A stretch of 24,000 nucleotides of DNA, from assembly GCA_014239435.1 (NCBI GenBank), contig JAAZYX010000033.1, forward strand, positions 64,871 to 88,870, written 5' to 3'. The translations under genes and the position numbers were made by a program. The notes beneath the pieces are model-generated. The model saw nothing but the letters and a program-made list of their open reading frames with translations. It was not told the DNA's origin and did no database searches. Position 1 is the stretch's first letter; each line of letters begins with the position of its first letter. This stretch comes from Fidelibacterota bacterium. Lineage in GTDB: Bacteria > Fidelibacterota > Marinisomatia > Marinisomatales > TCS55. Positions 1 through 24,000 of this stretch are shown here, in pieces.

Positions 1-879
1 AAGCCGCATGACTACCTTTTCTCCATGAATTGTCGGCAGAATTGAAACTCGAACATCAATATCCTTTGTTGTCGTTTTTATTCCGAATCGCCCATCCTGA
101 GATAAGCGACGTTCTGCAATATTGAGCTTGGATAGAATCTTTATTCTAGTAACCAAACCGCTAAGTGAAGATTTTGGGGGTGTCATTATCATTTGCAGGA
201 CACCATCAATTCGAATCCTGACTTCTACTGAATCCTGCTGAGGTTCAATATGAATATCTGTGGCGCGTTCTTTAATGGCTTCTTGTAAAATAAGATTTAC
301 TAATTTAACGATGGGAGCATCTTCGCTCGATGCTTTGTCCGGAGAAAGATCCACCTCTTCCTGATGGTCTTCATCCCCAGAAATGACTCTGATTCCTTCA
401 ATTGCTTCTTCTACCTCGCCAGATTTCTGAATTTTTCCATAAATTTCTTTCAGTGCTTTTGCAAGCGCAGACGGCGGCGCTACGTAAATTTCCGGATTAA
501 GGTCTGTATGCCGTTTTAATGCATCCACACCTATAAGGTTTTCGGGATCTTCCATTGCTACAATCAGAGATCCGCCATTTTTCCTGAGCGCAAGTATTCG
601 GTTCTGCATCGCAAAATCTTCCGGGATCAATCGTACCGCTTCCGGATCTGCTTTGAATAATTCATCCTCCGAAACAGACTTATATCCCAATTGGAGGGAG
701 TACACTTGTATCAATTCATCCTCAGTGATGTAGCCGGCTTTTACGAGAAGTGTCCCCAATTTATCGCTACTGTTTCTCTGGGATGACAGAGTTTTTTCCA
801 GATCAGATTCAGATATTTTCCCCTCATGAATAAGGATTTCACCGATCTTTTTGAACTGCGGATTAAATTCAGCGGACAT
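1..879 (-). CDS. pilB: Type IV pilus extension ATPase, PilB/GspE family. Only the N-terminal 293 codons are present; the 3' end runs off the left edge.
   Basis: Absent from the ORF track because there is no stop in the window. Manual reverse translation from the ATG at 879-877 gives MSAEFNPQFKKIGEILIHEGKISESDLEKTL...LGTLLVKAGYITEDELIQVYSLQLGY...DAPIVKLVNLILQEAIKERATDIHIEP...RLSQDGRF...ILPTIHGEKVVMRL. The frame stays open to position 1 (879 nt = 293 codons). This is a T2SSE_N/MshEN-type N-domain plus the start of the GspE ATPase core. The start overlaps the upstream gene by 11 nt. Confidence 0.85.
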   Translation of the reverse strand, partial: MSAEFNPQFKKIGEILIHEGKISESDLEKTLSSQRNSSDKLGTLLVKAGYITEDELIQVYSLQLGYKSVSEDELFKADPEAVRLIPEDFAMQNRILALRKNGGSLIVAMEDPENLIGVDALKRHTDLNPEIYVAPPSALAKALKEIYGKIQKSGEVEEAIEGIRVISGDEDHQEEVDLSPDKASSEDAPIVKLVNLILQEAIKERATDIHIEPQQDSVEVRIRIDGVLQMIMTPPKSSLSGLVTRIKILSKLNIAERRLSQDGRFGIKTTTKDIDVRVSILPTIHGEKVVMRL

Positions 880-4580: not shown

Positions 4581-4581
4581 A

Positions 4582-5112
4582 TCAATATTCTCTCCTCTGC
4601 CCGTTTTTTGAGGTGACATCCTCTTCTACACTAAGTCCAGAAACCTGATAATGTATTTCTTTATTTTCTGAGATAATGACGACTTCCTCAGAATCAATCC
4701 AAACGACTTCTCCATTAGCAACAGAATCACCAACCGTAACCACAAAATTCTTATCTCGATAATTCACGATGGCTCTTTGGGTGGATCCGTCGATAATTGC
4801 GGTTATGCGAAGTTTCCCGCTTTTGCGATACCGCATCGGCCTTCCATATGCATCCGTAAGGTACAATACATTTGTAAGGCGCATCGGCTCTTCTTCCAGA
4901 GCAAATTGAAATTCACTTCTGTTTAACAGCCGTGTTTCTAAAAATTCAATCACCTGTTCCAGTTCTTCATCCGTTCCGAATTGAATCTGTTCCGCCCGTT
5001 CCTTTGCACCGGTCCATTTTTTATTCAACGGATATACTTTGGAAGCCATAATTCCAAGAGAAAGCGTGCTCATAATCAGGAGTATAACCCAGACTGTTCT
5101 GTCCCTGCTCAC
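4582..5112 (-). CDS. pilP: PilP-like pilus assembly protein: an N-terminal membrane anchor plus a C-terminal beta domain.
   Basis: 176 aa with a GTG start in a GTGA overlap with the pilO stop. The TM segment is VWVILLIMSTLSLGIMA. The C-terminal motif TVGDSVANGEVVWIDSEEVVI is typical of PilP/GspC HR-type domains. Its position between pilO and pilQ supports the call. The assignment rests mostly on position. Confidence 0.6.
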   Translation of the reverse strand: MSRDRTVWVILLIMSTLSLGIMASKVYPLNKKWTGAKERAEQIQFGTDEELEQVIEFLETRLLNRSEFQFALEEEPMRLTNVLYLTDAYGRPMRYRKSGKLRITAIIDGSTQRAIVNYRDKNFVVTVGDSVANGEVVWIDSEEVVIISENKEIHYQVSGLSVEEDVTSKNGQRREY

Positions 5113-5678
5113 GATGATATTCCTTTTGATTTCACCAATGTTAAAGTTGACAGATGCAGTTCAACAATCTGCTCTTTAAGATCGCCTTCATCGGTAGTCG
5201 TTTTTACACGTTCTATTCCGTTTTTCACCAGAAATTCATCAATCGTAATTAATCTGGGAGACCGTTCAATTTCAGCGATAAATTTCCCCAATTGATCAAA
5301 ATCACACTTTAATAGCAATTCATACGGAGCACTATAATAGTTGCCTTTTTTCTCACGCGGCTTTGGTTTGATATTCATAAGCGTTACGCCAAGATTATTC
5401 ATCATTTCCGTCAAATTCTGTAAAAAAGGCATGGATGCATCTTCAGCAATAGAATCTGCCATACTAATTGCCAAATTTTCATCAAACAAGGTGTACACTC
5501 TGTCAAGCTTGCTGGCTAAAATCTGAGCGCTGATTAGCTGTTCGTTCAATTCTTCCTGTTCATCTTCCAAGTCCATCATGGTTACGGGATGGTTTCCAAT
5601 CGAAAACTTGAAATTGAGCCAGAAAGCAATGGATAATCCAATAAGCCCGAAGAATAGAATGGTGTTTCTTTGCTTCAT
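5109..5678 (-). CDS. pilO: PilO-like type IV pilus biogenesis protein.
   Basis: 189 aa with an ATGA overlap with the pilN stop. It has one N-terminal TM (ILFFGLIGLSIAFWL), a coiled-coil-like segment, then a GspM/PilO-like ferredoxin-type C-domain. The gene order is pilM-N-O. Confidence 0.65.
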   Translation of the reverse strand: MKQRNTILFFGLIGLSIAFWLNFKFSIGNHPVTMMDLEDEQEELNEQLISAQILASKLDRVYTLFDENLAISMADSIAEDASMPFLQNLTEMMNNLGVTLMNIKPKPREKKGNYYSAPYELLLKCDFDQLGKFIAEIERSPRLITIDEFLVKNGIERVKTTTDEGDLKEQIVELHLSTLTLVKSKGISS

Positions 5679-6271
5679 GATGACTTCGGCTTTCCGCCGC
5701 CGGGCTTTAATTTGGCTTCAATTCTGAATTCATAAATATCTTGTCCCCGCACTTGTTTACGCGATCCCTGATCAAATTTAATCCTGCTGAAATTATTTGA
5801 AAATTCACGGTTATTTTTTAGTGTATTAATAAAATTGTACACAATTCCAAACTTTTGCTGTTCATCCTGATAAATAACGCCAATCCCTTCAATAATCATT
5901 TTATTATTGCGGTATTTAAGTCCGGTTATCGCCATATCCTCGGGAGTCATTTCACCTAATAACTCAAGATAGCGAGCCCACAAGTACCGGTTTCTTTCTA
6001 AATCCGCTAACGCAATAATGTCATCCTTTGAAAGGTTTTTACCCTTTTTCCGAAGATTATTGATGTCTTCTTTTACCAGAGCTATTTCGGATTTTTTCTG
6101 ATCAATCAGGGCACGGTATCCATGTCCTATCATCCAAACACCGATGTTCGAACCCAGCAAAAGAATAACAATGATTCCAAACATGCTCCACCTTACACGG
6201 TCTCGCCAGACTTCAATCCGAGCCTCTTTCGTTTCGGACTGGTTTAGGTTGATGGTGATAAACTTATTCAC
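5675..6271 (-). CDS. pilN: PilN-like fimbrial assembly protein.
   Basis: 198 aa with a GTG start in a GTGA overlap with the pilM stop. The N-terminal ITINL motif resembles the PilM-binding INLLP peptide of PilN. One TM follows (MFGIIVILLLGSNIGVWMI), then a periplasmic domain. Confidence 0.7.
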   Translation of the reverse strand: MNKFITINLNQSETKEARIEVWRDRVRWSMFGIIVILLLGSNIGVWMIGHGYRALIDQKKSEIALVKEDINNLRKKGKNLSKDDIIALADLERNRYLWARYLELLGEMTPEDMAITGLKYRNNKMIIEGIGVIYQDEQQKFGIVYNFINTLKNNREFSNNFSRIKFDQGSRKQVRGQDIYEFRIEAKLKPGGGKPKSS

Positions 6272-7323
6272 GCAACTATTCCTCCCCGAATGGCAAGCCC
6301 AACCGCAACACAGTATTGGCCGGGATTAGGAATGTCCTGCCCTTCTGTGCCTTCCAGAGCCGCCAAGGGATTAAATACTTCCACATCAATATTCAGCTTA
6401 CTTTGAATATAGTCGCCAATGCCGGGAGTGCCGGCGCCACCTCCGGTGAGATAGATCTTTTGAAAGAAGCTTTGGTTGGTTGTTTTGGCATAATATCTAA
6501 GGGATCTCCGAACATCTTCCACCAAATTGTCAAAGACCGTTCTCTGTGCTTCCGCCAAGCCAATTTCCTGAGATCCATTCGATTGGTTGAACGCATCAAC
6601 CCCGTCTTTGTACAGTTCATCCTGTGCCGTTACATAATCCATTTTTCGGGCATCGGATAATCCCTTTACAAAATGGTGCCCGCCCACTGGAATGTCTCTT
6701 GTAAAGAAAGAATCCTTTTTTCCCCAGACCACCAAGGAACTGGAAACAGCGCCAATGTCCAACAAAACAATTACGCCATCTTCGGGAAAATCCTGATCGA
6801 GTGCAAATGAATTTGAAAGTGCAATTGGATCGGTATCCACTATGCCGGGCTTGAATCCTGCCTCCTTTAATAAATCTAAATGGCCATTCAGCACGCGCTT
6901 GGTACATGCCACCATTCCAACATCAATTTTGTCCACTTCTTTCGGATTCTGTCCAAAAATCTGAAAATCAATAACCGCATCTGTGCCATCCATTGGAATG
7001 TGTTTCCTCGCTTCAAATGTAAGCGCCGAATGCAGCTCCTCAGTTGCCATGTCCATCGTCATAATTTGGCGGACACTCACATTGGTGCCATTAATATTGC
7101 TCACAAGATTTCGCGCCCGTTTAGGATTGACCTTTTGCTGCTTCAGGATTTCCTTAATCGCCATCACAACGATAGGCCGGCTTACTTCCTCCGGATCAAA
7201 TGCTTTATGTTGTTCAGGGATGAGTCGTTGCGAAGCGTTAATCAGTTTATATCCGCCGGACCGCAATTTTTCAACGGTTACTGTTTTGATATACTGTCTG
7301 CCTACATCCAATCCAAGAATCAT
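6268..7323 (-). CDS. pilM: PilM, the actin-like ATPase-fold type IV pilus assembly protein.
   Basis: 351 aa. It shows MILGLDVGRQYIKTVTVEK (phosphate-1-like), VLLDIGAVSSSLVVW and IYLTGGGAGTPGIGDYI, the typical FtsA/PilM actin-fold motifs. The start overlaps the upstream stop by 1 nt. Confidence 0.9.
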   Translation of the reverse strand: MILGLDVGRQYIKTVTVEKLRSGGYKLINASQRLIPEQHKAFDPEEVSRPIVVMAIKEILKQQKVNPKRARNLVSNINGTNVSVRQIMTMDMATEELHSALTFEARKHIPMDGTDAVIDFQIFGQNPKEVDKIDVGMVACTKRVLNGHLDLLKEAGFKPGIVDTDPIALSNSFALDQDFPEDGVIVLLDIGAVSSSLVVWGKKDSFFTRDIPVGGHHFVKGLSDARKMDYVTAQDELYKDGVDAFNQSNGSQEIGLAEAQRTVFDNLVEDVRRSLRYYAKTTNQSFFQKIYLTGGGAGTPGIGDYIQSKLNIDVEVFNPLAALEGTEGQDIPNPGQYCVAVGLAIRGGIVA

Positions 7324-9440
7324 TAGTCCGACTCCCCGCTTCGTGTGGGAACTTCGCTGTAACTTTTCAAAACCAATTTCATTCCTCCGTCAGCACCGGT
7401 CGTGTTGGGGAAATTTGGCGGAGGATAAAAATCACTGAAATTGAAATCATAATGATAACTCTTATCGTATCCGATCCAGTAATTCGCATAGCTTCCAGGA
7501 GGATTCCGTTTCATGAAGCCCCGTAAATTTTGTGTAACGGAACCGTATAACTTTATCGTTCCTCGTAAGTCATTGGATGTGGATTGCTGGGTGGTTGAAG
7601 TCGGATTTCTAAAAGTCCCGCGGCCGTCTGCTTTTGAGGTGGCCGGACTTGAGGCGTAATACGGCGCTTGAGTTGCCGTATAGTATCCATTTTCTGCCGC
7701 CCCCGGAACTGAGTTCTGCCAGTAATGCGCTACAAAGGAATCATGCATTGCAATAATACCAGCATTGATAATGATATCTTGACCATATGCCCGATTTTTT
7801 GCACCATTCTCTGAGGTATTTGCGATGATTACATTTCCGCCTGAAACAAGTCCAAGGCGATTGGGCGTACCGTACACAACCTCTCCTGTGTTTTGATTTG
7901 AATCCGTATAAATAATATCATCTATCAACCAAATATTATTCCAAACTCTGTCAATAATTGTATGATCGTCCTGCCGTCTGTATTCCGTATAATTATCCGT
8001 TACAATCGTAAACTGTCCATCAACTTCTCCATGCACTCTCACCTGTCCATCCTTTACAAAAATCACAGCGCGGTCTTTATGGAATGTCGTCCAATTCATG
8101 ATATAATCTGTTCCATTCGGAGGTTCAAAATCGAAATGGTGAAATCCGGTTGACTGGCACACACTTGTTCCATCATCTGCGTGATTATGAAAAAACCCGA
8201 AATGATTAAATTGTTCAGATGCCATTCCGGTCCGATGAGATAACTGGACAGATTCACCCTCCACAAAACCGCCGGTAAAAAACCCACCCTGTTCCTGATA
8301 GTCCACTTTAAAAATATAATCACCGCTGCTGGTGGATTTTCCGGTTATGACTGAAATCCAATATTTATAACTCGTGTCCACAGAGGATATGACAATGGTG
8401 TCGCCGATACTGTATCCGTTGAGAACGTCGTCAACGCCATCGCCGTCGGAATCGTAATCGCTTAAAAATACCGAATCCACAAATCCGTATCCGGTGGTAT
8501 TGCTAAACGGCAAATCAACACCGATTTTCCCATCATTCAATCCGCTCACGGTATTGTCCTCATCCCACGTGTACGACAAGGTCGGCTGTCCATCTTCGGT
8601 CACTGGAGGAATGGCATACGCCCATTGAGCCACTTTAAATCCACCGGTGATAAACTCAATCTCAGTCATGATAAGCGAATCCTTAATGGCGCCTCTCCAC
8701 AGCAGCTCATCCGCTGTGAATACATAATCCGCAGAATTTTTAACACGCTCAACAGTATTGGTAGGTGGATATGAAATTACATCTGCTGAGTCGTCGTAGG
8801 TTGCATTCGCGAACGATGTTTCTTCACAGTTGCCCATATTAATTCCAAGGGAAGCATTCACTTGTCCGTTAAATTTCGGGCAGCCGTAAGCACTCATGGT
8901 TATTTCGCCGTTTGTATGGACAACACCCTCAAGGGTGTCAGATGCGCCAAATGTTACTGTACCGCTCGTGTACGGTCCGCCGCCGGGTTCTTCTGAATTG
9001 GTGAAATACATAAATTTTGAAAAATCCTCCGCAACAAGATTCACTTCCGCCTTCCGTTCAATTTCGACGGATTTCCCCTCACTATTTTGAAATTCTGCGG
9101 TACCCCATGCGCTTGCGTAAAAATAGGTCTTCCCATAATCATCTACATATGAAGAACACACTACATCATGGTAAAAACCGTCAAATTCAGGGCTTTCACT
9201 AAACTTCACTTTTTGCGTAGCCAACACCATGACCTGATCATATAAATACGGTAATTGCGGCATGCCTACTTTATTGATTCCTGTCTCTGCTAGCAGCAGT
9301 GCAGACGATTCCGCAAAACGATATTTTTCGACAACCGATGCCGAAAGTGAATACCGTAAATAGGCAATGGTTAGAAGAAGGCTGATCATGGTAAAAATGA
9401 CAGCCGTAATGGTGGCTGTACCTTTTTGAAACTGTTTCAT
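7323..9440 (-). CDS. Large PilX_N-type (pseudopilin-like anchor) pilus-associated protein; candidate tip or adhesin component.
   Basis: 705 aa with an ATGA overlap with the upstream minor pilin. The N-terminus MKQFQKGTATITAVIFTMISLLLTIAYL resembles the PilX N-terminal hydrophobic helix but lacks a G/F-T-L-I-E cleavage motif. The body is rich in G/N/T/Y strand-like repeats (GNVIIANTSENG, DIIINAGIIAM, VFVKDGQVRVHGEVDGQFTIV). It also has an EF-hand-like acidic loop, SDYDSDGDGVDDVLNG. Confidence 0.7.
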   Translation of the reverse strand: MKQFQKGTATITAVIFTMISLLLTIAYLRYSLSASVVEKYRFAESSALLLAETGINKVGMPQLPYLYDQVMVLATQKVKFSESPEFDGFYHDVVCSSYVDDYGKTYFYASAWGTAEFQNSEGKSVEIERKAEVNLVAEDFSKFMYFTNSEEPGGGPYTSGTVTFGASDTLEGVVHTNGEITMSAYGCPKFNGQVNASLGINMGNCEETSFANATYDDSADVISYPPTNTVERVKNSADYVFTADELLWRGAIKDSLIMTEIEFITGGFKVAQWAYAIPPVTEDGQPTLSYTWDEDNTVSGLNDGKIGVDLPFSNTTGYGFVDSVFLSDYDSDGDGVDDVLNGYSIGDTIVISSVDTSYKYWISVITGKSTSSGDYIFKVDYQEQGGFFTGGFVEGESVQLSHRTGMASEQFNHFGFFHNHADDGTSVCQSTGFHHFDFEPPNGTDYIMNWTTFHKDRAVIFVKDGQVRVHGEVDGQFTIVTDNYTEYRRQDDHTIIDRVWNNIWLIDDIIYTDSNQNTGEVVYGTPNRLGLVSGGNVIIANTSENGAKNRAYGQDIIINAGIIAMHDSFVAHYWQNSVPGAAENGYYTATQAPYYASSPATSKADGRGTFRNPTSTTQQSTSNDLRGTIKLYGSVTQNLRGFMKRNPPGSYANYWIGYDKSYHYDFNFSDFYPPPNFPNTTGADGGMKLVLKSYSEVPTRSGESD

Positions 9441-10063
9441 GATTCCATCCCCTGTTTTGTTACTTCAAAAAGAGAAATATATTTATTCGGCATAAAAACA
9501 GACCTCCTTACCCTGATTTTCGTATCCATCGGATTTTGATCGCTCACGTCCGTTTCCACAGAAAAAATTAATTCCAAATTCCAGGTAGCTTCGGCATATC
9601 GTTGAAGCTCAGGTCTTTCTTCCATTCTTTGATCTGCCTTAAATGTTTCAAGCCTTACAATCCGCTGGCCGTTATCACGAAAGCGGCCTTTCCGGGGAAA
9701 TCCGAGCGTACCTCCAACAGGATTTCTTCCATCAAACTGAATCCCATCTAGCGCATGTCCGGAAATGACGATATTGGATTCATTACCAAGTTTATCATAC
9801 TGGTAAAGACGAAGCCGAGCATAGCCATTGGCAAAATCTCTCTCGATAAATCTTGATGTACTAATTTCGTGCATTATTTCCCGCATCACCGCCTGCCCAT
9901 ACTGGCGGACTTCGAGCAAAACCGAATCATTCTGATAATGAAATAGAATAGCCCGCACGCCCATTGAAAGACCCACCACCATTATTCCAATCACTGTGAT
10001 GGATGTAACCAATTCAATGAGAGTCAATCCAGAAGAGCTGCGTTTCACCCAAGAAAACTTCAT
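9437..10063 (-). CDS. Minor (pseudo)pilin with a prepilin-type N-terminal cleavage/methylation motif.
   Basis: 208 aa. MKFSWVKRSSSG|LTLIELVTSITVIGIMVV matches the G-[FL]-T-L-I-E class III signal. It has an ATGA overlap with the upstream gene. Confidence 0.8.
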   Translation of the reverse strand: MKFSWVKRSSSGLTLIELVTSITVIGIMVVGLSMGVRAILFHYQNDSVLLEVRQYGQAVMREIMHEISTSRFIERDFANGYARLRLYQYDKLGNESNIVISGHALDGIQFDGRNPVGGTLGFPRKGRFRDNGQRIVRLETFKADQRMEERPELQRYAEATWNLELIFSVETDVSDQNPMDTKIRVRRSVFMPNKYISLFEVTKQGMES

Positions 10064-10512
10064 AGTGGAAACTCCAGCATCACCATTTCAACTTCGCGCG
10101 TTTTCGTAACGTTATGTCTCGCAGATGTAAAATCTTGCCAGGTAATCCATGCTTTAAATCTATACCGATCCATTCCGCCGGTCGAATCAGCTGGTTCTTT
10201 GTGAATAGGGTCGTAGAAAATTTTCGCTTCGATTCTATCCGGATTTTCATCGTCCCCTAAAAGGAAAACCTTTTCACCATCTAAATTTCCGCCCCTCTCA
10301 ATACCGGATAAGCGTCCGTCGGCAATGCGGCCTTTCATGCCTTCCACAAAACTTAGTAATTCTTCAGTGGCGCGCTCCCGAATCTCAAGTGCCTGCAGTT
10401 CTCCTCTGGCATGCACAGCGCCAAGCATCAATCCGAATGCCGCCACACTTACAATTATAACAGCAATCAGCACCTCGATGAAAGTAAACCCGGTTGAAGT
10501 TTTCAATTTCAT
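10060..10512 (-). CDS. Minor (pseudo)pilin with a prepilin-type N-terminal cleavage/methylation motif.
   Basis: 150 aa. MKLKTSTG|FTFIEVLIAVIIVSVAAFGL is a class III signal peptide. The start abuts the pilT stop. Confidence 0.8.
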   Translation of the reverse strand: MKLKTSTGFTFIEVLIAVIIVSVAAFGLMLGAVHARGELQALEIRERATEELLSFVEGMKGRIADGRLSGIERGGNLDGEKVFLLGDDENPDRIEAKIFYDPIHKEPADSTGGMDRYRFKAWITWQDFTSARHNVTKTREVEMVMLEFPL

Positions 10513-11565
10513 TTACAGAACTTTAGATTCAAACAGTTTAGGATTTTCGGCCAATCCAGCAGCCTGAGACCGATCAATCAGCGCCTGCGTTACAAGCCTT
10601 TGCAAATCCTGATCCAGTGTTTGCATCCCATCTACGCCTCCGGACTGCATTACAGATGGAATTTGGTAAATCCTATCCTCGCGAATCAGGTTTCGAATCG
10701 CAGTTGTCGCTATCAGGATTTCCAGCGCAGGGACTCTACTTTTGCCATCTTTTGACGGCAATAATTTTTGAGAAATAACGGCTTCTAAACTTTCGGACAG
10801 CATTGAACGAATTTGGCTTTTCTGACTTGCCGGAAAAATATCAATAATCCTATCCACCGCTTTTACCGAGCTGGATGTATGCAAAGTAGACAATACAAGG
10901 TGGCCCGTTTCAGCGGCTGTAAGCGCGAGTGAAATGGTATCGAGGTCACGCATTTCACCCACCAAAATCACATCCGGATCTTCACGAAGGGCCGCTCTTA
11001 ACGCATTTGCAAAACTGTGTGTCGTTAGTCCTAACTCTCTCTGGTTGATGAGGCATTGGCTTGAACGATGAAAATATTCAACCGGGTCTTCGATCGTAAT
11101 AATATGCTTTGATTTATTTTGATTGACATGATCCACCATGGCGGCAAGCGTCGTACTCTTTCCCGATCCGGTTGGACCCGTAAGGAGGACCAAGCCATTT
11201 TCAAGCATTGCTAAATTCGCAAGAACTGGCGGAAGACCGAGCTCTTCAAATCCTTTTGGGACTTCAGAAATTGTCCTGAATACGCCTGCAAGACCGCTGA
11301 TTTGGTGAAAGAAATTCACACGGAATCTTCCCTGACCATCTAATTTATAAGACAGGTCAATTTCCTTGTCTTCCCGGTAGCGGCTGATTTGATCTTCTTC
11401 CATTACTTGAGGAAGAATAGTTTCCATATCCGTTTCTTCTAAGGCTGGCATGTTCAACGGTTTCATTGTACCGTTAATCCGAACCATGGGTATGGACCCC
11501 GTACTTAAATGCAAATCCGACGCACCGCTATCGAGCGCGTACGTTAGTAATTCATTAATGTTCAT
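10513..11565 (-). CDS. pilT: Twitching-motility retraction ATPase PilT.
   Basis: 350 aa. It shows ASDLHLSTGSIPMVRINGTM, Walker A GPTGSGKSTT, IITIEDPVE, the Asp box LREDPDVILVGEMRD, and TGHLVLSTLHT (His box). Length and motifs are classic PilT. Confidence 0.95.
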   Translation of the reverse strand: MNINELLTYALDSGASDLHLSTGSIPMVRINGTMKPLNMPALEETDMETILPQVMEEDQISRYREDKEIDLSYKLDGQGRFRVNFFHQISGLAGVFRTISEVPKGFEELGLPPVLANLAMLENGLVLLTGPTGSGKSTTLAAMVDHVNQNKSKHIITIEDPVEYFHRSSQCLINQRELGLTTHSFANALRAALREDPDVILVGEMRDLDTISLALTAAETGHLVLSTLHTSSSVKAVDRIIDIFPASQKSQIRSMLSESLEAVISQKLLPSKDGKSRVPALEILIATTAIRNLIREDRIYQIPSVMQSGGVDGMQTLDQDLQRLVTQALIDRSQAAGLAENPKLFESKVL

Positions 11566-11571
11566 AAAATT

Positions 11572-11979
11572 CTATTCGCGTTTCTTGGTTCCGTAACCCG
11601 TGTATTGGCCCGTCTCCGCATTGTATTCAACAACCTTACCCTCTCCGCCTTCCATTTCGCTGGTGCTGGTGGCGAGGACGCGTTCCGGCATTTGGATTTC
11701 GAAGATCCATTGCCGTTTCGTTGCGCGGTCAATATTGAGCTGTCCCGCACGCTCAATTTCTTCAACATCCCCCGGCCATTCACCATACGTCTGGCGGTAC
11801 ATTTTGGCTCCGTTCGTAATACTACCGATGACTGATTTCGCTTCCGATGCACGGGCACTTTCGACATAATCAATATAAATCGGCACAGCCACTGCGGCCA
11901 AGATAGCAACAATAACAACCACTACCATTATCTCGATCATAGTGAAACCTTTGGTACAATATTTTTTCATCTTATTCAT
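11572..11979 (-). CDS. pilA: Major type IV pilin (PilA-like).
   Basis: I prefer the ATG at 11979, with AGGA about 9 nt upstream. This gives MNKMKKYCTKG|FTMIEIMVVVVIVAILAAVAVPIYIDYVESARASEAK, a short leader, G-F-T-M-I-E and a hydrophobic alpha1 helix. The track ORF starting at 12090 adds 37 non-pilin residues. An alternative start is the ATG at 11970. Confidence 0.85.
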   Translation of the reverse strand: MNKMKKYCTKGFTMIEIMVVVVIVAILAAVAVPIYIDYVESARASEAKSVIGSITNGAKMYRQTYGEWPGDVEEIERAGQLNIDRATKRQWIFEIQMPERVLATSTSEMEGGEGKVVEYNAETGQYTGYGTKKRE

Positions 11980-12127
11980 GGTCTTTTTCCTGTTCGTTGG
12001 TGAATGAGTTTTATTTGGTTCAAATAAAGTCGAGAAATTTACAAAATTTTCCTGACTTCTACTAACGAGTGCCCTGCTGGACTTTTGCATTGGTTTTTCT
12101 CCCTAATTCAAAGGACATTAACGAGCG

Positions 12128-18595: not shown

Positions 18596-20182
18596 TCAGG
18601 AACCTGCCTGATGCGCAATAATCAGCCAGCCTTTGGCTTCATTATCTTCCGGGTTCAACTCAAGGCTACGGTTCCACGCCGCTTTGGCAAGCTGCGTTTC
18701 CTGCATTTTCCAATACGTTACTCCCATGCCGAGATACGCTTTAGAATCGGATGGTTTGAGTTCCACCACTTCTTGAAATGCAGCCAGCGATTCTTTATAC
18801 ATGCTACGCTCGCGATAGGTTTTCCCAAGCGTTCGCATCGCGCCTGAAAGCCATGCGCTTGTATTAGAATTGATGCTCATTGCTTTGTCAAAAGCAGACC
18901 TTCCCTGCGCTGACTTGCCAATCCTGTTGTATTCTACTGCCAGCACATAATACGTCTGCGGTAGCAGCATGCGCACCAGCGGATGGTGCGGATCGTAGTG
19001 TAGCAAATCTTCCCACGCATTGGCGGCGCGACCCCATTCGGAGGCATTAAAATAGCTGAGTCCCTGCATGTACCGCGCATCCACATTGTAGGGATCCAGA
19101 TAAACGACATCGCTGTAGCCGAGAGCCGAATACACATATTTCCCCTGATTATAATAGAGGTTTGCCAGCGCCATATGGGATTCCTTGTTTTTTGGATCCA
19201 TATGGATAGCGTTCTGGTACGAAGTTTTTGCGTCGTCAATATCACCGAGGTCTTCGTGTCCTTTTCCCTGAAGATATACAAATCCGCTATGGTCAGGATG
19301 CTGTTCGGACGCTGATTTGGCGAGCATGATGGCTTGTTGTGTGTCGCCTGATTTCAATTTACTTCGGATTGCCATCATCTGTTGCGCGGGACCATCCGGA
19401 TGTTTTGTAGCTGAGCGTGACAACACTTCGCTGCTCATATTTTTCCCGCGGGATGATCCTAAAAAGGATGCCATTGCGTTCAATGTTTGATAATGGTCCG
19501 GATTGAGATCGAGCGCTTCTTCGTAAGAATGCTGCGCTTTCCCGAGATCGCCGACACGCGCATACAGCGAACCGAGAAAATAATGGTAATCCGGATTCAG
19601 CGGTTGTTTGACCAAGAGCCGAAAATACACATCTTTCGCTTGTTCAAATTCCTGTACCGATTCGTAATGCAGTCCAAGTTGACGCTGGAGGCGGATATTC
19701 TGCGGTTCTTTGTCCGCAGCTTTTTCATAATCCGCAGTGGTAAATGCTTGTCGGGAATCGAGCCGAACAAGTCGGCGTTCTTCCGGGCCTTTCAAGTACG
19801 ATGTTGCGCGGGTTAATTGATCAGAACTAACATTGAGCGCTTCCGTGATCGTGAATAATTCATCTGTAAATTCCGTAACACTAATTTTTGGCGGACGTGC
19901 ACGGTCAAGCGCTTCTTTTTTGGGTGCGGATTTCTTTTTCTTTGCTTTTTTCTTTTTGGTCGGTCGTTTCTTCTTCTTCTTTTTCGCTTTGCCCTTTTTC
20001 TTTTTCTTTGAAGATTTTTTCTTGGACGATTTCTTTTTCTTAGAGGATTTTTTCTTCTTTTTCTTCTTCTTCTTTTTGGTAGTTTGGGCAGATACGGCAG
20101 TGCTGAACATCGGCAAAACTCCGCCGATAATTACGGTTCCGATTAGGATTCGGATGAGCCAGGCTGTGAGTAGTCGCTTCAT
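18596..20182 (-). CDS. TPR-repeat protein with an N-terminal signal or anchor and a poly-lysine tract.
   Basis: 528 aa. The N-terminus MKRLLTAWLIRILIGTVIIGGVLPMFSTAVSA|Q is followed by residues 36-89, which hold 39 Lys in 54 residues. Many TPR units follow (AKDVYFRLLVKQPLNPDYHYFLGSLYARVGDLGKAQHSYEEALDLNPDH and others). Confidence 0.85.
   Translation of the reverse strand: MKRLLTAWLIRILIGTVIIGGVLPMFSTAVSAQTTKKKKKKKKKKSSKKKKSSKKKSSKKKKKGKAKKKKKKRPTKKKKAKKKKSAPKKEALDRARPPKISVTEFTDELFTITEALNVSSDQLTRATSYLKGPEERRLVRLDSRQAFTTADYEKAADKEPQNIRLQRQLGLHYESVQEFEQAKDVYFRLLVKQPLNPDYHYFLGSLYARVGDLGKAQHSYEEALDLNPDHYQTLNAMASFLGSSRGKNMSSEVLSRSATKHPDGPAQQMMAIRSKLKSGDTQQAIMLAKSASEQHPDHSGFVYLQGKGHEDLGDIDDAKTSYQNAIHMDPKNKESHMALANLYYNQGKYVYSALGYSDVVYLDPYNVDARYMQGLSYFNASEWGRAANAWEDLLHYDPHHPLVRMLLPQTYYVLAVEYNRIGKSAQGRSAFDKAMSINSNTSAWLSGAMRTLGKTYRERSMYKESLAAFQEVVELKPSDSKAYLGMGVTYWKMQETQLAKAAWNRSLELNPEDNEAKGWLIIAHQAGS
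19916..20077 (-). repeat. Low-complexity AAA/AAG (Lys) codon tract inside the TPR gene.
   Basis: The plus strand is an almost pure pyrimidine T/C run (ttcttcttctttttc...). It encodes KKKKKKKKKKSSKKKKSSKKKSSKKKKKGKAKKKKKKRPTKKKKAKKKKSAPKK on the minus strand. Confidence 0.9.
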
Positions 20183-20201
20183 TGTAGGAAAATGAATTTA
20201 C

Positions 20202-20231
20202 AAAAACCTCCTTTTAGAAAAAGGGGTTTTT
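20202..20231 (-). terminator. Rho-independent terminator closing the metal-handling operon.
   Basis: The minus-strand RNA AAAAACCCCUUUUUCUAAAAGGAGGUUUUU forms a long stem (the A-tract pairs with the U-tract; the CCCC/GGAGG core has one wobble) and ends in a U-run. It lies 25 nt after the BNR gene stop. Confidence 0.6.
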
Positions 20232-20255
20232 ACTCCCAAAAATTGCTCGAGTAAA

Positions 20256-21443
20256 TTACAATTTAGATACCGGAATCCATTTCGATTCCACTTTCCCGGA
20301 TTCGCCGCTGCTCGTCCATGCCAGAAAAATCTTTCTTCCGCTGCGTGCAATAACCGGGTAACCGCTGGCCCTTCCAGCATCAATTTCTGCCGCAATAAAC
20401 GGCTTTCCCAAACGACCATTAATCGAAACGGTCCGGAATACAATATGGGTATTTTCTTCCCCATATTCCATCCAGCTAGCCAATGCTCTACGTCCATCCA
20501 GCCACATGAGGTCCGTCCTGCCGATCGGCATTCCGCCGTCCAGCCGCTTCGGTTCCTGAAAAGTTTTTCCGTTATCATTCGATAAAGCAAACAGAACCTG
20601 CGGTGTTTCATTTGGTGATGTAAACCAGACAGATGCCAGCGAGTTTCCTCTTGAAGCGAGTTTCGGACCATTCACCGGACAGCCGGCAATCTTCCAATTG
20701 TCAGCATGAATCGGCGCCGGTTTTGTCCATTCTTTTTCGTTCAGCCGCACAACATACATATCTCGGATTTCCGTATCAGATCTGTCCCTGTACGCCAACA
20801 CAATTCCGTCTTTAGTTTCGACCGCCGATGTCGGGCAGCATTCGCAAACCTTGTCATCGAGCAGCGTTTCCGGCCCGAGTTTTCCGGATGCATCCAACGT
20901 TGTCGAAAACAAATTCATGGCGCCGTAATCGTGATCACCGTGGCCGGCGGTCATATTTCGCCCGTCCAGCCAAGCCAAAGCTAAAGAACCGTCAGGATTT
21001 GTGAAAAATGATACAAATCCGTGTTCTCCCTTTTTCCCGTCTCTGTGCGCCGTTATGGAAGACGTCCATGTGTGCCCGCGGTCAAATGACTGAGACACTT
21101 TCACATCGTAATCGTAAGGTCCGGTTCCGCTTTTTTGGGGCCAGTGCGCCGCAAAATTGTTTTCCCCGAAAAAGTAAATAGACGGAAAATCAGCCCAGTT
21201 TACAAAATAGTCTTCGCCTGAAGTAATCGTAACCGGCTCAGTCCATTGGGATCCTGCGTATTCAGACATTTTCAGGCTGAATTTTTCTCCCAACGGCTCA
21301 AACCAGCACACAGCAAATCCGCGGTCGGTTTCCGTGATATTCGGATACCGGCTGCCGGCACCTGTCGGAGCATCGGTTGAAGACCCGGCCAAAAGAATTT
21401 GGAAAAGTACCGGGATCAGAATGAGCCTCCGACCCCGATTCAA
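20256..21443 (-). CDS. Secreted BNR/Asp-box (sialidase-like) beta-propeller protein with conserved-looking Cys clusters.
   Basis: 395 aa. The first codon is TTG (no in-frame ATG until about residue 59), giving the signal peptide MNRGRRLILIPVLFQILLAGSS. Asp-box motifs are SFDRGHTW and SNDNGKTF. Cys clusters are DDKVCECCPTS and IAGCPVNGP. Confidence 0.8.
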   Translation of the reverse strand: MNRGRRLILIPVLFQILLAGSSTDAPTGAGSRYPNITETDRGFAVCWFEPLGEKFSLKMSEYAGSQWTEPVTITSGEDYFVNWADFPSIYFFGENNFAAHWPQKSGTGPYDYDVKVSQSFDRGHTWTSSITAHRDGKKGEHGFVSFFTNPDGSLALAWLDGRNMTAGHGDHDYGAMNLFSTTLDASGKLGPETLLDDKVCECCPTSAVETKDGIVLAYRDRSDTEIRDMYVVRLNEKEWTKPAPIHADNWKIAGCPVNGPKLASRGNSLASVWFTSPNETPQVLFALSNDNGKTFQEPKRLDGGMPIGRTDLMWLDGRRALASWMEYGEENTHIVFRTVSINGRLGKPFIAAEIDAGRASGYPVIARSGRKIFLAWTSSGESGKVESKWIPVSKL

Positions 21444-21458
21444 GTTTACAATAATGGC

Positions 21459-21794
21459 TTACTCCTTGCCGGGGATTTTACAACACATGTCCAGCTTGGC
21501 ATATGCCTCTTTGTTTGCCGGAGTATCGTTCGCATCATATCCGGCGCCGGCAATGGCCTTTTCAATTGCCGCCATATCAAGCACGCCTGCTTCATATACA
21601 ACTTTGCCGACTTTCTTATCGTCATCAATTTCGATGCTTACAAAACCTTTCAGCCCTGACAATGCATTTTCAATATTCATGGAACACATGCCGCACTGCA
21701 TTGTGCTTAGTGCTACATCGGCTGTTTTATTTTTCTCTCCGCATGCAGAAATTATCATGGCCGCTGCTGCAATTAGAATTAGGGATTTTTTCAT
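21459..21794 (-). CDS. Heavy-metal-associated (HMA) domain lipoprotein, MerP/CopZ-like and periplasmic.
   Basis: I prefer the ATG at 21794, with AGGAAA upstream. This gives MKKSLILIAAAAMIISAC (lipobox ISAC), then the HMA motif STMQCGMCSMNIENAL (M-x-C-x-x-C) on a ferredoxin-like fold. A C-terminal MCC pair is also present. The track ORF start at 21833 is a TTG that overlaps the upstream gene. Confidence 0.85.
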   Translation of the reverse strand: MKKSLILIAAAAMIISACGEKNKTADVALSTMQCGMCSMNIENALSGLKGFVSIEIDDDKKVGKVVYEAGVLDMAAIEKAIAGAGYDANDTPANKEAYAKLDMCCKIPGKE

Positions 21795-21822
21795 GGTATT
21801 TCCTTTCATTATTTTGGTGATA

Positions 21823-22812
21823 TCACTCCTCAAATTTAAAAAGAGTGAATGATTTTCGAACGCTTAGAGATCCACCCCAAACATCCGTTTTACTCGTTAC
21901 TTCTATTTCTTCCTGGCTCGTTACGCTCGTATTGAAATACACCGGAGAACGAGTAGAAACTGTTGCAAAATATCCGTTCTTCGTGAAGGTCAGACCGCCT
22001 CCGAGTTGCAAAACACTTCCACCGGAATTCGGCGCCTCTTCTCCATCCCAAATAGCCGGGTTTCGATATTGGCCAAGCAATTGGAAAAATGGAATCCCGC
22101 CCCAAAAGGATTTTGTCTGAATATAAACCAGCATCGCTCCGGAAAATTGTATTCCGGGCTTAAATCCGTACTCATTTGTTTCCAAAGGCACATCCACTTT
22201 CAACACGCCGCCCGGGAATATGGAACCGTCAGTCCGTCTGAAGTACTGGAATTCCGCATGACCTTTGACCACGCCTTCGCTCAAATTGAAATGCGTGTGG
22301 GATTCCCCGGCTTTCCCAAGTTTAAATGGATTTTCAGTCAAAGTATTGCTCGATGGAATAACGATTCCGCCGCCAATGAAAATCCGCTGGCCGGGGCCGA
22401 AAGTCGTATTCTCAAATAAATACCGAAGCGTAATTCGGGTATCCCCAAAACCAATTTTGTTTTCATCGCGGTGATGAATATTCGCGGCACGATAAAAATC
22501 CATGGATCTGTTTCCTGTCATAACATCTGCGCTCAAATTCCAATTATCGGAAAACCCGTAGGTTGCATTTATTTCCGCTAAACTTGAATTCAGATTTCCT
22601 TCGTGGTCGCCGCCGGATGCTTCCAGTTCGCTGTGCCACCATTCGATATTTTGCACCGTCATATTTGCACCAATGATAAGTTTTCCCTTATCTAAACCAA
22701 CTCCAGAATTGGCCGTCCCGACCGGGAGGCTTGGATTCGTTCAAAGAGGTCATTGGCCCCACAACAAAACAGACATAAAAAAAGGTATCAGATTTTTCAG
22801 CACACTTTTCAT
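21823..22812 (-). CDS. Predicted outer-membrane beta-barrel protein with two in-frame TGA codons (22750-22752 and 22741-22743). Candidate U-x-x-U selenoprotein; a nonsense-disrupted pseudogene is the alternative.
   Basis: The ATG at 22812-22810 overlaps the YdjM-like gene stop (ATGA) and has GAAGGGA 8 nt upstream. The reading is MKSVLKNLIPFFMSVLLWGQ-TGA-PL-TGA-TNPSLPVGTANSGVGLDKGKLIIGAN-MTVQNIEWW.... This is the same frame as the 279-aa track ORF (150 nt = 50 codons upstream). The track ORF alone has no signal peptide. The body has alternating aromatic and hydrophobic strands and a C-terminal FTLFKFEE, consistent with a roughly 300-aa OM barrel. Confidence 0.5.
22712..22730 (-). promoter_or_regulatory. 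SECIS-like RNA hairpin downstream of the two UGA codons.
   Basis: The mRNA GCCUCCC-GGUC-GGGA(C)GGC forms 7 bp (6 of them G:C) with one bulged C and an apical loop GGUC. The loop begins 17 nt after the second UGA and 26 nt after the first. The E. coli fdhF SECIS also presents a GGUC sequence at its apex, with essential G and U. I identified this by eye, not with a scoring model. Confidence 0.4.
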
Positions 22813-23345
22813 GCTGATAATCCCTTCAATTTATTTTTCCCTAACAAGATGAAAGCAATACCATTCATGGCGATTTCAAACCACAGCAATACTATGTTCT
22901 CAATGTAAAATGAGAAATATGGATCTCGAATCATTTCCCACACCGGTATCTGCCCTTTTTCCGGCTGAACCGGATACACATCAAAATTGATCGAGCTGAA
23001 CGGATACAGCCATTGAATTCCAACCGTGCGTGCCGTAATCCAATCGGTAACCAGATGAAGCATGGCACCCAGGAAAATTGCGAGTGAAACGGGTTTCATC
23101 CAGCTGAAGTTTGAAAACATTCCCAATCCCGTCATTCCTGAAAAAATGAATAACCAAAAAATTGGTGTATGCAAAATCGAATGATGCCCCGCCACCGTTG
23201 TAGACCAAATTCCATCCACATCCGGCAGAATAGATGCAATCAGTAACACAGGTAAAAACGGTGCAGCGGTCTGAGAGGAATTTTCCTTTTGATGAAGGGC
23301 ATTTCCCAATAGGTATCCGGACGCTATATGTGATGGAAGAAACAT
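22809..23345 (-). CDS. YdjM/DUF457-family membrane-bound metal-dependent hydrolase-like protein.
   Basis: 178 aa, polytopic. It has the family pattern H...ILPDVDGIW...GHHSILHTP plus a later HLVTDW. It starts 4 nt after the DUF4396 gene stop. Confidence 0.75.
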   Translation of the reverse strand: MFLPSHIASGYLLGNALHQKENSSQTAAPFLPVLLIASILPDVDGIWSTTVAGHHSILHTPIFWLFIFSGMTGLGMFSNFSWMKPVSLAIFLGAMLHLVTDWITARTVGIQWLYPFSSINFDVYPVQPEKGQIPVWEMIRDPYFSFYIENIVLLWFEIAMNGIAFILLGKNKLKGLSA

Positions 23346-23348
23346 GAT

Positions 23349-23873
23349 TTAATGGATGTGCCGGTATCCTTTTTTCACCATCATCAAATTAATCGGCCAT
23401 GCGGCAACAAATCCTGCCGTAAGCGCAAATGCCATTCCAATCCAAAGAATAGGGTCAAACAATCCTGCCTGCATGAATCCTGGTGTGTACACTTCCACCA
23501 GCACTTCCGCCGTTTCCATGAATACTATGCTCAATCCTTCGGCCAACAGCACCTGCTTGAAAGCATTGTTGAAAGAATATCCGTGTTTCAGGAGGGGTTT
23601 CATTCCGAGGATAAATCCAAATACAAACCCAAGAGAAACCGCCAACGCAATGGATGGTATGATAGCCAAGCCGAGCTTCATGGCAATTAGCATTCCTACT
23701 ATTTCGCCGAGCCCGCAGCCCATCAGACAGTGCAGCGTCGCTGATGTGGCAAGTTTTGCGTCTGAAATCTCTTCGCCTCCGTTGTGATGCTCATGATGTT
23801 CATGCCCTTCATGGTCATGATCGTTTTTGTCGTGATCATGATGATCGTGACTATGGTCGTGTTCTGATGTCAT
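23349..23873 (-). CDS. DUF4396-family membrane protein with an extremely His-rich N-terminal tail.
   Basis: 174 aa. MTSEHDHSHDHHDHDKNDHDHEGHEHHEHH has 13 His within residues 5-30. It is followed by TLHCLMGCGLGEIVGM (the HC-x2-GC-x-GE motif typical of DUF4396) and TM helices. AGGGA lies upstream of the ATG. Confidence 0.75.
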   Translation of the reverse strand: MTSEHDHSHDHHDHDKNDHDHEGHEHHEHHNGGEEISDAKLATSATLHCLMGCGLGEIVGMLIAMKLGLAIIPSIALAVSLGFVFGFILGMKPLLKHGYSFNNAFKQVLLAEGLSIVFMETAEVLVEVYTPGFMQAGLFDPILWIGMAFALTAGFVAAWPINLMMVKKGYRHIH

Positions 23874-23900
23874 AATATCGTTTTCCCTTTGAGATATTGA

Positions 23901-23929
23901 ATTAAAAAATTATTGCATTATAATTTCAA
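23901..23929 (-). promoter_or_regulatory. Candidate sigma70-type promoter of the metal operon.
   Basis: The minus strand reads TTGAAA-N17-TTTAAT, ending about 27 nt upstream of the DUF4396 ATG. A perfect TATAAT (23917-23922) also lies in this region as an alternative -10. This is a pattern match only. Confidence 0.35.
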
Positions 23930-23936
23930 ATTTTAT

Positions 23937-23971
23937 GAGAGTCTTTCGAGAAAATTCCCCGAAAGACTCTC
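23937..23971. repeat. Perfect 12-bp inverted repeat with an 11-nt spacer. It is either an operator for the metal operon or the terminator of the upstream gene.
   Basis: GAGAGTCTTTCG (23937-23948) and CGAAAGACTCTC (23960-23971) are exact reverse complements. The repeat ends 7 nt upstream of the candidate -35. The minus-strand tail AUAAAAUUU is only weakly U-rich. Confidence 0.5.
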
Positions 23972-24000
23972 TTCCATTTTCTATGTTTTCTTACAACAGG

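Follow-up and report, generated by a model that had tools for sequence, protein, structure and literature searches.

The operon and its predicted products

Near the end of a 24,000-nucleotide (nt) stretch of contig JAAZYX010000033.1 from a Fidelibacterota bacterium (assembly GCA_014239435.1; the whole stretch is called the window hereafter) lie five co-directional, tightly packed open reading frames (ORFs) on the minus strand, which span positions 20256-23873 and encode, in gene order, a DUF4396 membrane protein, a YdjM-type protein, a predicted outer-membrane barrel, an HMA lipoprotein and a BNR-like propeller. They are considered here as candidate parts of a module that would handle soft metals in the cell envelope. 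A sequence-only reading of the window had described the same array; its ORFs and all four spacings (3 nt, an ATGA overlap of -4 nt, 28 nt and 15 nt, counted from DUF4396) were recovered as given, and every motif that it had singled out is present, namely 13 His and HCLMGC in DUF4396, MQCGMC and the terminal MCC(K) in the HMA lipoprotein, VCECC and AGCPVNGP in the propeller, and UxxU in the barrel, U being selenocysteine (Sec). The genes, and two elements within the barrel gene, are:

23349 to 23873, minus strand: DUF4396 membrane protein, 174 amino acids (aa); Pfam PF14342, 6e-33, 114.6 bits against a gathering threshold of 27
22809 to 23345, minus strand: YdjM/DUF457 inner-membrane protein, 178 aa; Pfam PF04307, 1e-18, 67.6 bits against a gathering threshold of 29
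21823 to 22812, minus strand: barrel gene, 329 codons; signal peptide, then Q-U-P-L-U, then barrel
22741 to 22752, minus strand: UGA-CCU-CUU-UGA, predicted Sec-Pro-Leu-Sec (UxxU); TGA codons at 22752-22750 and 22743-22741
22712 to 22730, minus strand: predicted Sec insertion sequence (SECIS) hairpin GCCUCCC-GGUC-GGGACGGC; 7-bp stem, GGUC loop
21459 to 21794, minus strand: HMA lipoprotein, 111 aa; lipobox IISAC, MQCGMC, C-terminal MCCK; PF00403, 8e-9, 36.2 bits against a gathering threshold of 24.8
20256 to 21443, minus strand: exported beta-propeller, BNR_2-like, 395 aa, TTG start

Gene callers place the start of the barrel at ATG 22662, and the frame runs on upstream to ATG 22812 via the two TGAs; read through these, the N-terminus is MKSVLKNLIPFFMSVLLWGQ-U-PL-U-TNPSLPVG.... 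The same truncation point recurs in all 23 close homologues, which are called at 275-293 aa, and the upstream DNA of homologues at 66%, 45% and 44% identity encodes a hydrophobic signal segment followed by GQ-TGA-CCN-YTN-TGA-(T/A/S)NPSLPVG. Both UGAs, with a signal peptide before them and xNPxLPVG after, are conserved in more than 40 metagenomic loci of marine and soil origin (22-88% identity). High-GC soil lineages carry the form A-UAGU-SNP(N/T)LPVG, with one locus (L055) showing a mixed CAGU form, and an exhaustive profile search detected distant homologues with Cys at both UGA positions (AQ-CPAC-SNPSL in P0220 and A-CAAC-SNPNL in P0251). Many other distant homologues are called from 'MPVGN', that is, truncated just past the motif; because every gene caller truncates it, the barrel is systematically mis-annotated. 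The U/CxxU/C motif would stand at the extreme N-terminus of the mature barrel, given predicted cleavage between AxA and U in the soil forms and between G and Q-U, or A and Q-C, in the FCB-type forms.

In the bacterial SECIS model a stem-loop lies shortly downstream of the UGA and has G/U in its apical loop. The loop of the barrel hairpin is located 17 nt past the second UGA and 26 nt past the first, and its GGUC sequence and spacing resemble those of the Escherichia coli fdhF SECIS. Among 20 diverse sequences, four of the seven stem pairs show compensatory double changes and 86% of stem cells are paired, compared with at most 61% when the partner strand is slid; the observed covariation was reached in 0 of 500 shuffles. 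An Rfam scan of positions 20000-24000 gave nothing meaningful and no match to a bacterial SECIS family. Of the 23 window genes 15 end in TGA, more than in any other stop codon, and only the barrel gene has it in frame; as TGA is used as a stop elsewhere in the window, a reassigned genetic code is excluded. Conservation and covariation thus indicate that the barrel is a genuine two-Sec selenoprotein with a functional-looking SECIS.

No tRNA-Sec gene was found within the 24-kb window, and a search over 2.1 Mb of fetched loci returned a single one, in L147 (18002-18091), a locus of a Chitinophagaceae metagenome-assembled genome, where it follows the ATPase-TlpA-propeller operon at a distance of 7 kb. 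That proximity is probably a coincidence; the genes in between (peptidase M14, gamma-glutamyltranspeptidase, DinB-like, aminotransferase) look unrelated. The barrel family is absent from the family tables of the 2022 and May 2026 reviews of prokaryotic selenoproteins, in which the sole outer-membrane barrel is of the GSU2204 MtrB/PioB type, unrelated to the window barrel. DUF3179 is counted among the selenoprotein families (UxxC/T) in the 2026 review, and two genes of this family are located some 3 kb from the barrel gene in locus L006 (11418-13569), where they may represent another Sec/Cys metal-site family.

The barrel has no Pfam or NCBIfam match. Its AlphaFold2 model has 12 strands with a mean confidence (pLDDT) of 85, and the solved folds closest to it in Foldseek are the outer-membrane channels FapF and COG4313 (template modelling (TM) scores 0.60-0.74, 10-12% identity). 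In its predicted form the barrel shares with COG4313 (Pput2725, PDB 4rl8) and FapF the 12 strands, a similar size and an internal helix/loop insert; those channels, which transport hydrophobic molecules or amyloid subunits, have neither a UxxU arm nor a His cluster, and a profile search of the window barrel against PDB sequences gave nothing significant. Distant members terminate in an outer-membrane-protein-type ...IPWLYW. H46, HHRxE (89-93), HxH (148-150), W231 and NS (238-239) remain invariant, or almost so, in homologues as distant as 21% identity, and the strand pattern would place these residues in loops on the extracellular side. No match to the barrel was found on plasmids.

The propeller start at TTG is supported because homologues align upstream of the ATG chosen by the gene caller. 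Its match to Pfam BNR_2 (PF13088) is below threshold (3e-6, 27.2 bits against a gathering score of 31.4), and the family is large, with more than 7000 matching proteins and relatives in at least 596 stretches of species-representative genomes. The best 80 of these stretches were inspected; their sources are Marinimicrobia, Acidobacteriota, Gemmatimonadota, Bacteroidota, Rhodothermales and Ignavibacteria, with the cultured Lacibacter cauensis and Roseivirga sp. E12 among them. Four motifs are invariant across 28 sequences with identities as low as 41%: CECCPT and GCPVNGP, which together hold the four Cys C200, C202, C203 and C255, and also EHGF and NWAD. The AlphaFold2 model is confident (pLDDT 87) and matches generic sialidase and lectin propellers only (TM scores 0.48-0.63, at most 16% identity), and a profile search against PDB sequences found nothing significant. 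Databases name the protein 'sialidase family protein' or 'exo-alpha-sialidase'. It shares with GH33 sialidases and BNR propellers the beta-propeller fold and a single Asp-box-like segment (SNDNGKTF), but its four invariant Cys and its copper-island context (see below) are unknown in sialidases, and membership of that group is not supported because homologues have K or A in place of the Arg in the RIP-like SRYP motif. Matches to 'exo-alpha-sialidase' on Ralstonia plasmids were left aside, being only 23% identical, and kinship with the actinobacterial F510_1955 Asp-box protein was rejected as the shared part is the Asp-box alone.

The remaining three products are smaller. DUF4396 has an N-terminal tail with 13 His in residues 5-30 and the HCLMGC motif in its first membrane segment; the His-rich tail and FHCL(M/L)GCGLGE are kept in orthologues from L027 and L034. 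The YdjM protein retains the motifs PSHxASGY, PDxDG, TVAGHHSxLHTP and HLxTDWxTARTVGI. The lipobox, (M/I)QCxMC and C-terminal CCK are kept in 21 distinct orthologues of the HMA lipoprotein, which scores below the equivalog cut-offs for MerP (TIGR02052; 37.7 against 92.55 bits) and CopZ (36.5 against 91) and weakly matches the NF041115/NF045683/SO_0444 group of selenoprotein models. A strain-level variant in L001 (6875-7210) has MFCK where the window gene (21459-21794) has the otherwise conserved MCCK. The conservation of Cys and His clusters in orthologues, which the sequence-only reading had named as a check on its proposal, is thus borne out, Sec included.

Gene order, fusions and neighbours

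Homologues of the operon are labelled Candidatus Marinimicrobia, Neomarinimicrobiota or Fidelibacterota, and the DUF4396 protein is found in identical form on metagenome scaffolds in ENA. The order [barrel]-YdjM-HMA-BNR-TPR-TPR is conserved across Marinimicrobia at 43-80% identity. HMA abuts BNR in 10 of the 11 distinct Marinimicrobia loci with enough flank, the remaining one having the order HMA-YdjM-BNR. YdjM is present in six of seven such loci and so is the barrel, although the latter figure is biased because many loci were fetched via the barrel; DUF4396 occurs in one of seven and additionally in L027, L034 and L083. Alternative arrangements include Barrel-YdjM-HMA-BNR (L014 and others), Barrel-BNR-DUF4396 with a 4-nt overlap (L034-37) and Cys117-barrel-HMA (L028), and one Marinimicrobia locus reads CusB-CusA-HMBD-YdjM-HMA-BNR. 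YdjM-HMA-BNR is a conserved Marinimicrobia core, to which barrel and DUF4396 come and go; the gene-neighbourhood comparison that had been proposed as a test speaks for the proposal, as this core recurs throughout the phylum, with other orders also occurring. In one Marinimicrobia lineage (L161, 3016-5813) an HMA gene and a TonB-dependent receptor gene lie upstream of YdjM(+HMA)-BNR, at the place usually taken by barrels, which hints at import.

Outside Marinimicrobia the context of the propeller was examined at 73 loci. In 32 of these a multicopper oxidase (MCO), CusA, CusB, HMBD-P-type ATPase or HMA gene lies within 10 kb of the propeller, and in 21 a TlpA/Redoxin-type thioredoxin lipoprotein gene abuts it at a median distance of 7 nt. 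One Chitinophagaceae locus forms a tight operon of the order HMBDx5 - Usp - DUF326 - Cu-type ATPase - TlpA - propeller. In cultured Roseobacters (Phaeobacter, Leisingera, Sulfitobacter and others), about 60 conjugative plasmids encode a propeller of 35-42% identity in which CTCC and GCPVNGP are preserved. On these plasmids it ends an operon of TolC, copper oxidase, copper-binding protein, plastocyanin/azurin, ABC transmembrane domain, cytochrome c and propeller genes, which is flanked by CusAB, P-type ATPase and HMA genes and in which the propeller is annotated as 'sialidase family protein' only; the copy on Phaeobacter inhibens plasmid pP66_b is PhaeoP66_RS20145.

DUF4396 has comparable neighbours. 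On plasmids it belongs to copper islands: in Streptomyces to one with CopC, ArsR, a cation transporter, DUF305 and an Asp-box 'glycosylhydrolase', in haloarchaea to one with HMA, P-type ATPase, plastocyanin and DUF302. It also flanks a metal island in Acidihalobacter. On a Streptomyces liliifuscus plasmid (L157, 4894-6417) a Cys-less F510_1955 Asp-box propeller gene is located directly upstream of DUF4396 within a CopC/ArsR/DUF305 copper island, a second and unrelated pairing of a propeller with this family.

Fusions and adjacent genes connect the barrel with some of the same partners. P0220, a Cys-form barrel, has an HMA domain at its C-terminus and is encoded tail-to-tail with an HMA::DUF4396 fusion (HCEGC ... 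NCLIGC) in L159 (295-2274) and also L160, an arrangement that joins three of the five families in a distant lineage. Some soil barrels end in a thioredoxin domain (P0212, L067 and L068; Pfam Thioredoxin, residues 333-408); at seven other soil loci a thioredoxin lipoprotein gene is directly adjacent, and a HAMP-HisKA sensor kinase gene lies nearby in six. In the group L053-L073 (e.g., L068 9875-11146 and L059 2230-2898), whose barrels retain UAGU-SNPxLPVG, the thioredoxin partners have extra Cys/His motifs. The barrel alone is also found in MerT::HMA - zf_CopZ - barrel - ArsR clusters. A YdjM+HMA read-through form, P0299, is given little weight as a fusion because its HMA part retains an internal lipobox of its own.

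On scaffold L001 (14.8 kb), which extends beyond the window end, six further genes for exported or membrane proteins (1834-4688) directly precede the operon. These encode:

Cys-rich protein, 117 aa
second HMA protein, with CSFC
MerT-like protein, with LLCCVLP; 1.2e-5 to the MerTP model
second barrel, with mature N-terminus HQPVMDM
SnoaL-like lipoprotein
Cys-rich secreted protein, 90 aa

The two barrels have no detectable homology to each other. The six-gene set is found again in L012, L019, L077 and L083. As six metal-type genes lie directly upstream, the five genes make up the 3' half of an 11-gene cluster, the first part of which is located beyond the window end. Nor do they constitute a self-contained, universal unit, in view of these upstream genes and of the optional nature of barrel and DUF4396.

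Two hairpins flank the operon:

23937 to 23971, minus strand: inverted repeat with a 12-bp perfect core (23971-23960 / 23948-23937), 16-bp hairpin fold
20202 to 20231, no strand assigned: A/U-rich hairpin with UUUUUG after it, located between the BNR gene and the Lys-rich TPR gene; weak as a candidate for an intrinsic terminator

Of the boundaries proposed from the sequence, the inverted repeat is indeed perfect and forms a strong hairpin (-24.3 kcal/mol, z = -5.3), although the accompanying promoter-like hexamers are at chance level in a sigma-70 scan (7 against 6.8 expected) and the 'strong terminator' at the other end is modest (-12 kcal/mol, z = -0.9), with the next gene beginning about 20 nt later. 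The upstream hairpin has no U-tract after it. Since it starts 9 nt past the stop codon of the Cys-rich secreted-protein gene that lies beyond the window end, it more probably represents a terminator or processing hairpin of that gene, and for the same reason it is probably not a regulatory operator. The remaining window genes encode type IV pilus or type II secretion system (T2SS)-like proteins, IspG, a ComM-like ATPase and TPR proteins. The TPR protein that invariably follows the propeller in Marinimicrobia (window 18596-20182) has a Lys/Ser tract of about 70 residues behind its signal peptide (e.g., KKKKKKKKKKSSKKKKSSKKKSSKKKKKGKAKKKKKKRPTKKKKAKKKK). A region unrelated to the operon (869-12090) encodes a secretin, PilM/N/O, a T2SSE ATPase, three prepilin-type proteins and a 734-aa Big_1 protein.

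A candidate copper route through the periplasm

As judged from neighbouring genes and fusions, all five families are consistently tied to soft-metal genes, above all those for copper, with the HMA domain as common partner, and it is for this reason that the operon is read as an envelope module for Cu(I)-type trafficking. We consider it probable, at roughly 0.6, that the five genes form the 3' half of a module that binds a soft (thiophilic) metal, most probably Cu(I), and moves it through the periplasm. The sequence-only reading had proposed a thiophilic metal or a chalcogen oxyanion; the former idea is favoured by the context, which includes Cu-ATPase, CusAB, MCO, HMBD, MerT-HMA, zf_CopZ and ArsR genes as well as HMA fusions, with Cu(I) a likelier metal than Hg.

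A relay from outer to inner membrane, also part of that proposal, is a plausible mechanism. In such a scheme the HMA lipoprotein, with its CxxC and C-terminal CC, would act as the periplasmic hub chaperone. The barrel would be an outer-membrane gate with a flexible periplasmic Q-U-P-L-U arm, the two selenols of which could take the metal with very high affinity and hand it on to the conserved His/Glu cluster (H, HHRxE, HxH) in the channel loops or lumen. The putative four-Cys site (CxCC + C) of the exported propeller may accept or buffer Cu(I), and in other phyla could be held reduced by the TlpA-type thioredoxin. DUF4396 would serve as an inner-membrane permease whose cytosolic His-rich tail, replaced elsewhere by an HMA domain, collects or releases the metal, and YdjM as an inner-membrane protein with a His/Asp metal site, a presumptive partner without an assigned step. 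With respect to direction, we lean towards buffering and export (homeostasis or detoxification) in preference to uptake, as suggested by the efflux-type neighbours, the ArsR regulators and the plasmid resistance islands.

Several points weigh against this interpretation. The functional evidence is throughout one of guilt by association, and genes for a metal-sensing regulator, an efflux pump or a cuproenzyme are absent from both the window and its upstream flank. YdjM-HMA-BNR-TPR-TPR-GcpE is a core synteny, so its conservation could in part reflect inherited gene order, and the YdjM+HMA form P0299 may merely have lost a stop codon. UxxU or CxxC motifs with thioredoxin partners are equally a signature of redox enzymes. 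Finally, the MerT-like genes and the TonB-dependent receptor (L161) beside the module, together with its core-genome character in Marinimicrobia, favour acquisition or supply over export.

This last point leads to the reading that the module acquires copper and supplies cuproenzymes: the barrel would admit scarce Cu for capture by the UxxU arm and the HMA lipoprotein, the Cys4 propeller would load it, as a periplasmic chaperone, into oxidases or NosZ-type enzymes, and DUF4396 or the MerT-like proteins would import it. A housekeeping-like core synteny of YdjM-HMA-BNR in a phylum living at picomolar free Cu would suit such a role, as would the TonB-dependent receptor and HMA standing in for the barrels in L161, the adjacent MerT-type importers, and the COG4313-type uptake channels among the nearest folds. 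TlpA-type reductases are known from CuA/ScoI maturation, which together with the wealth of cuproproteins and cytochromes c in the Roseobacter operon points the same way. In other phyla, however, conjugative plasmids carry the propeller beside efflux and resistance genes of the classical kind (CusCBA, HMBD-type P-type ATPases, MCO), DUF4396 resides in resistance islands, and ArsR/SmtB regulators such as those beside the barrel usually derepress detoxification genes, so that we regard acquisition as rather unlikely. A mercury-specific, mer-like function is more doubtful still. There the UxxU arm and a MerP-like HMA lipoprotein would pass Hg(II) to MerT-like or DUF4396 importers for detoxification in the cytoplasm. 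In its favour are the extremely tight binding of Hg by selenols and the near-equal scores of the HMA protein for the MerP and CopZ models. In L004 and L006 the barrel adjoins MerTP-fusion genes, L001 has a MerT-like gene upstream, and known UxxU and MerT/CopZ selenoprotein families are annotated as related to Hg or heavy metals. Yet MerA, MerB and MerR are encoded in none of the inspected loci, the HMA score is far under the MerP cut-off (37.7 against 92.6 bits), and across phyla the context of both propeller and DUF4396 is one of copper. As regards a mer operon proper, neither MerA nor a regulator is encoded in the window or L001, where the one candidate is the weak MerT-like gene upstream.

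It is similarly improbable that the operon encodes a thiol/selenol redox system of the envelope, acting on disulfides or peroxides or as a Cu(II)/Fe(III) reductase, with UxxU as a catalytic centre recycled by thioredoxin-like partners. Most known bacterial UxxC/UxxU selenoproteins are redox enzymes, and the barrel::thioredoxin fusions, the adjacent thioredoxin lipoproteins and the 21 loci with TlpA abutting the propeller would all fit; on the other hand, the window operon lacks a thioredoxin gene, metal coordination is suggested by fused or adjacent HMA domains, by His-rich tails and by the barrel His cluster, and a thioredoxin partner is equally expected where metal-binding thiols have to be kept reduced. 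That the genes share no function at all, with the propeller a sialidase-like glycan hydrolase, YdjM a hydrolase, the synteny inherited, and the TGAs marking a pseudogene or a shorter barrel from ATG 22662, would accord with the database names and with the start chosen by all gene callers. Against it, the RIP-like Arg is not conserved and the propeller is under the BNR_2 threshold, a glycosidase role explains neither the four invariant Cys nor the copper-island context, the families recur in differing orders and as fusions, and the DNA upstream of ATG 22662 is conserved as coding, with signal peptide, both UGAs, Cys replacements and covarying hairpin. The glycosidase or pseudogene reading is essentially excluded, and an absence of any common function is very improbable. 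The same low standing is accorded to the handling of selenite or tellurite, the chalcogen alternative of the sequence-only reading, for which nothing speaks beyond the presence of Sec and many thiols: TerC, TehA, YedE and selenium-metabolism genes occur in none of the inspected loci, and the recurrent neighbours are all cation-metal genes.

Relation to described systems and significance

Compared with described systems, the module that we favour, for a soft metal and most probably Cu(I), is in part familiar. As in the MerP/MerT and CopZ/CopA relays, a CxxC protein of HMA fold would be central, MerT-like genes lie nearby, and HMA is fused to membrane partners in other lineages. The window HMA protein differs in being a lipoprotein with an extra C-terminal CC that scores below the equivalog cut-offs; MerA, MerR and a P-type ATPase are not encoded in the window, and DUF4396, YdjM, the selenoprotein barrel and the Cys4 propeller are foreign to mer and cop. 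PcoB is an outer-membrane barrel with a disordered Met/His-rich N-terminal arm. The resemblance to PcoB/CopB and to Cus/Pco lies in an outer-membrane barrel with a predicted flexible periplasmic N-terminal metal arm, in the HQPVMDM with which the second barrel begins, and in the co-occurrence of the propeller family with CusAB, MCO and Cu-ATPase genes. The window barrel nevertheless has no sequence match to CopB, has two Sec in its arm instead of Met/His, and has FapF/COG4313 as its best folds. None of the cop/pco/cus components (multicopper oxidase, CopB/PcoB, CopC/D, CusCBA) is encoded in the window; they adjoin homologues in other genomes.

Sec as a soft-metal ligand within U/CxxU/C would be shared with the UxxU metal-binding (seleno)protein NF041115, the MerT/CopZ fusion-like selenoprotein NF045683 and the Cu/Zn efflux selenoprotein SO_0444, which are small HMA-fold or inner-membrane proteins, unlike the outer-membrane beta-barrel of the window with its motif at the mature N-terminus. 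TlpA-ScoI/PCuAC constitutes a periplasmic pathway for the maturation of copper chaperones. A TlpA-type thioredoxin lipoprotein gene directly beside that of a periplasmic Cys-site protein in Cu-ATPase operons recalls this pathway, but the client would be a 400-aa propeller with CxCC + C and neither Sco nor PCuAC fold, and the window has no TlpA gene.

Literature searches (DUF4396; UxxU; BNR and copper; sialidase family protein and copper; Marinimicrobia and selenocysteine) did not return a description of the system, and none of the family models and publications consulted covers the barrel, the propeller or their combination, in agreement with the sequence-only reading, which had not recognised a propeller and a YdjM-type protein in this context as a described system. 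A periplasmic soft-metal cluster around an HMA chaperone is known as a kind of system; four of the five parts are without a described role. The barrel appears to be a new selenoprotein family, and the association of the propeller with copper is undescribed in the literature that the searches found. We further propose, tentatively and as a possibility somewhat short of even odds, that the barrel is an undescribed outer-membrane selenoprotein family with an N-terminal diselenol metal hook serviced by HMA or thioredoxin proteins, and that together with the Cys4 propeller, found as 'sialidase family protein' in copper islands of at least six phyla, it forms a widespread route for Cu(I) in the periplasm that has gone unrecognised.

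Although the copper homeostasis of bacteria is regarded as well mapped, the propeller family comprises more than 7000 proteins, with carriers among hundreds of species-representative genomes and on conjugative plasmids, and is without an assigned role. The barrel would add an outer-membrane member with two Sec and a predicted metal-binding function to a bacterial selenoproteome made up mostly of soluble redox enzymes. Homologues are available in tractable isolates, including those with the Phaeobacter inhibens plasmids, Lacibacter cauensis and Roseivirga sp. E12. For ocean biogeochemistry, the module points to copper handling by the abundant Marinimicrobia and would couple the use of selenium to the handling of trace metals.

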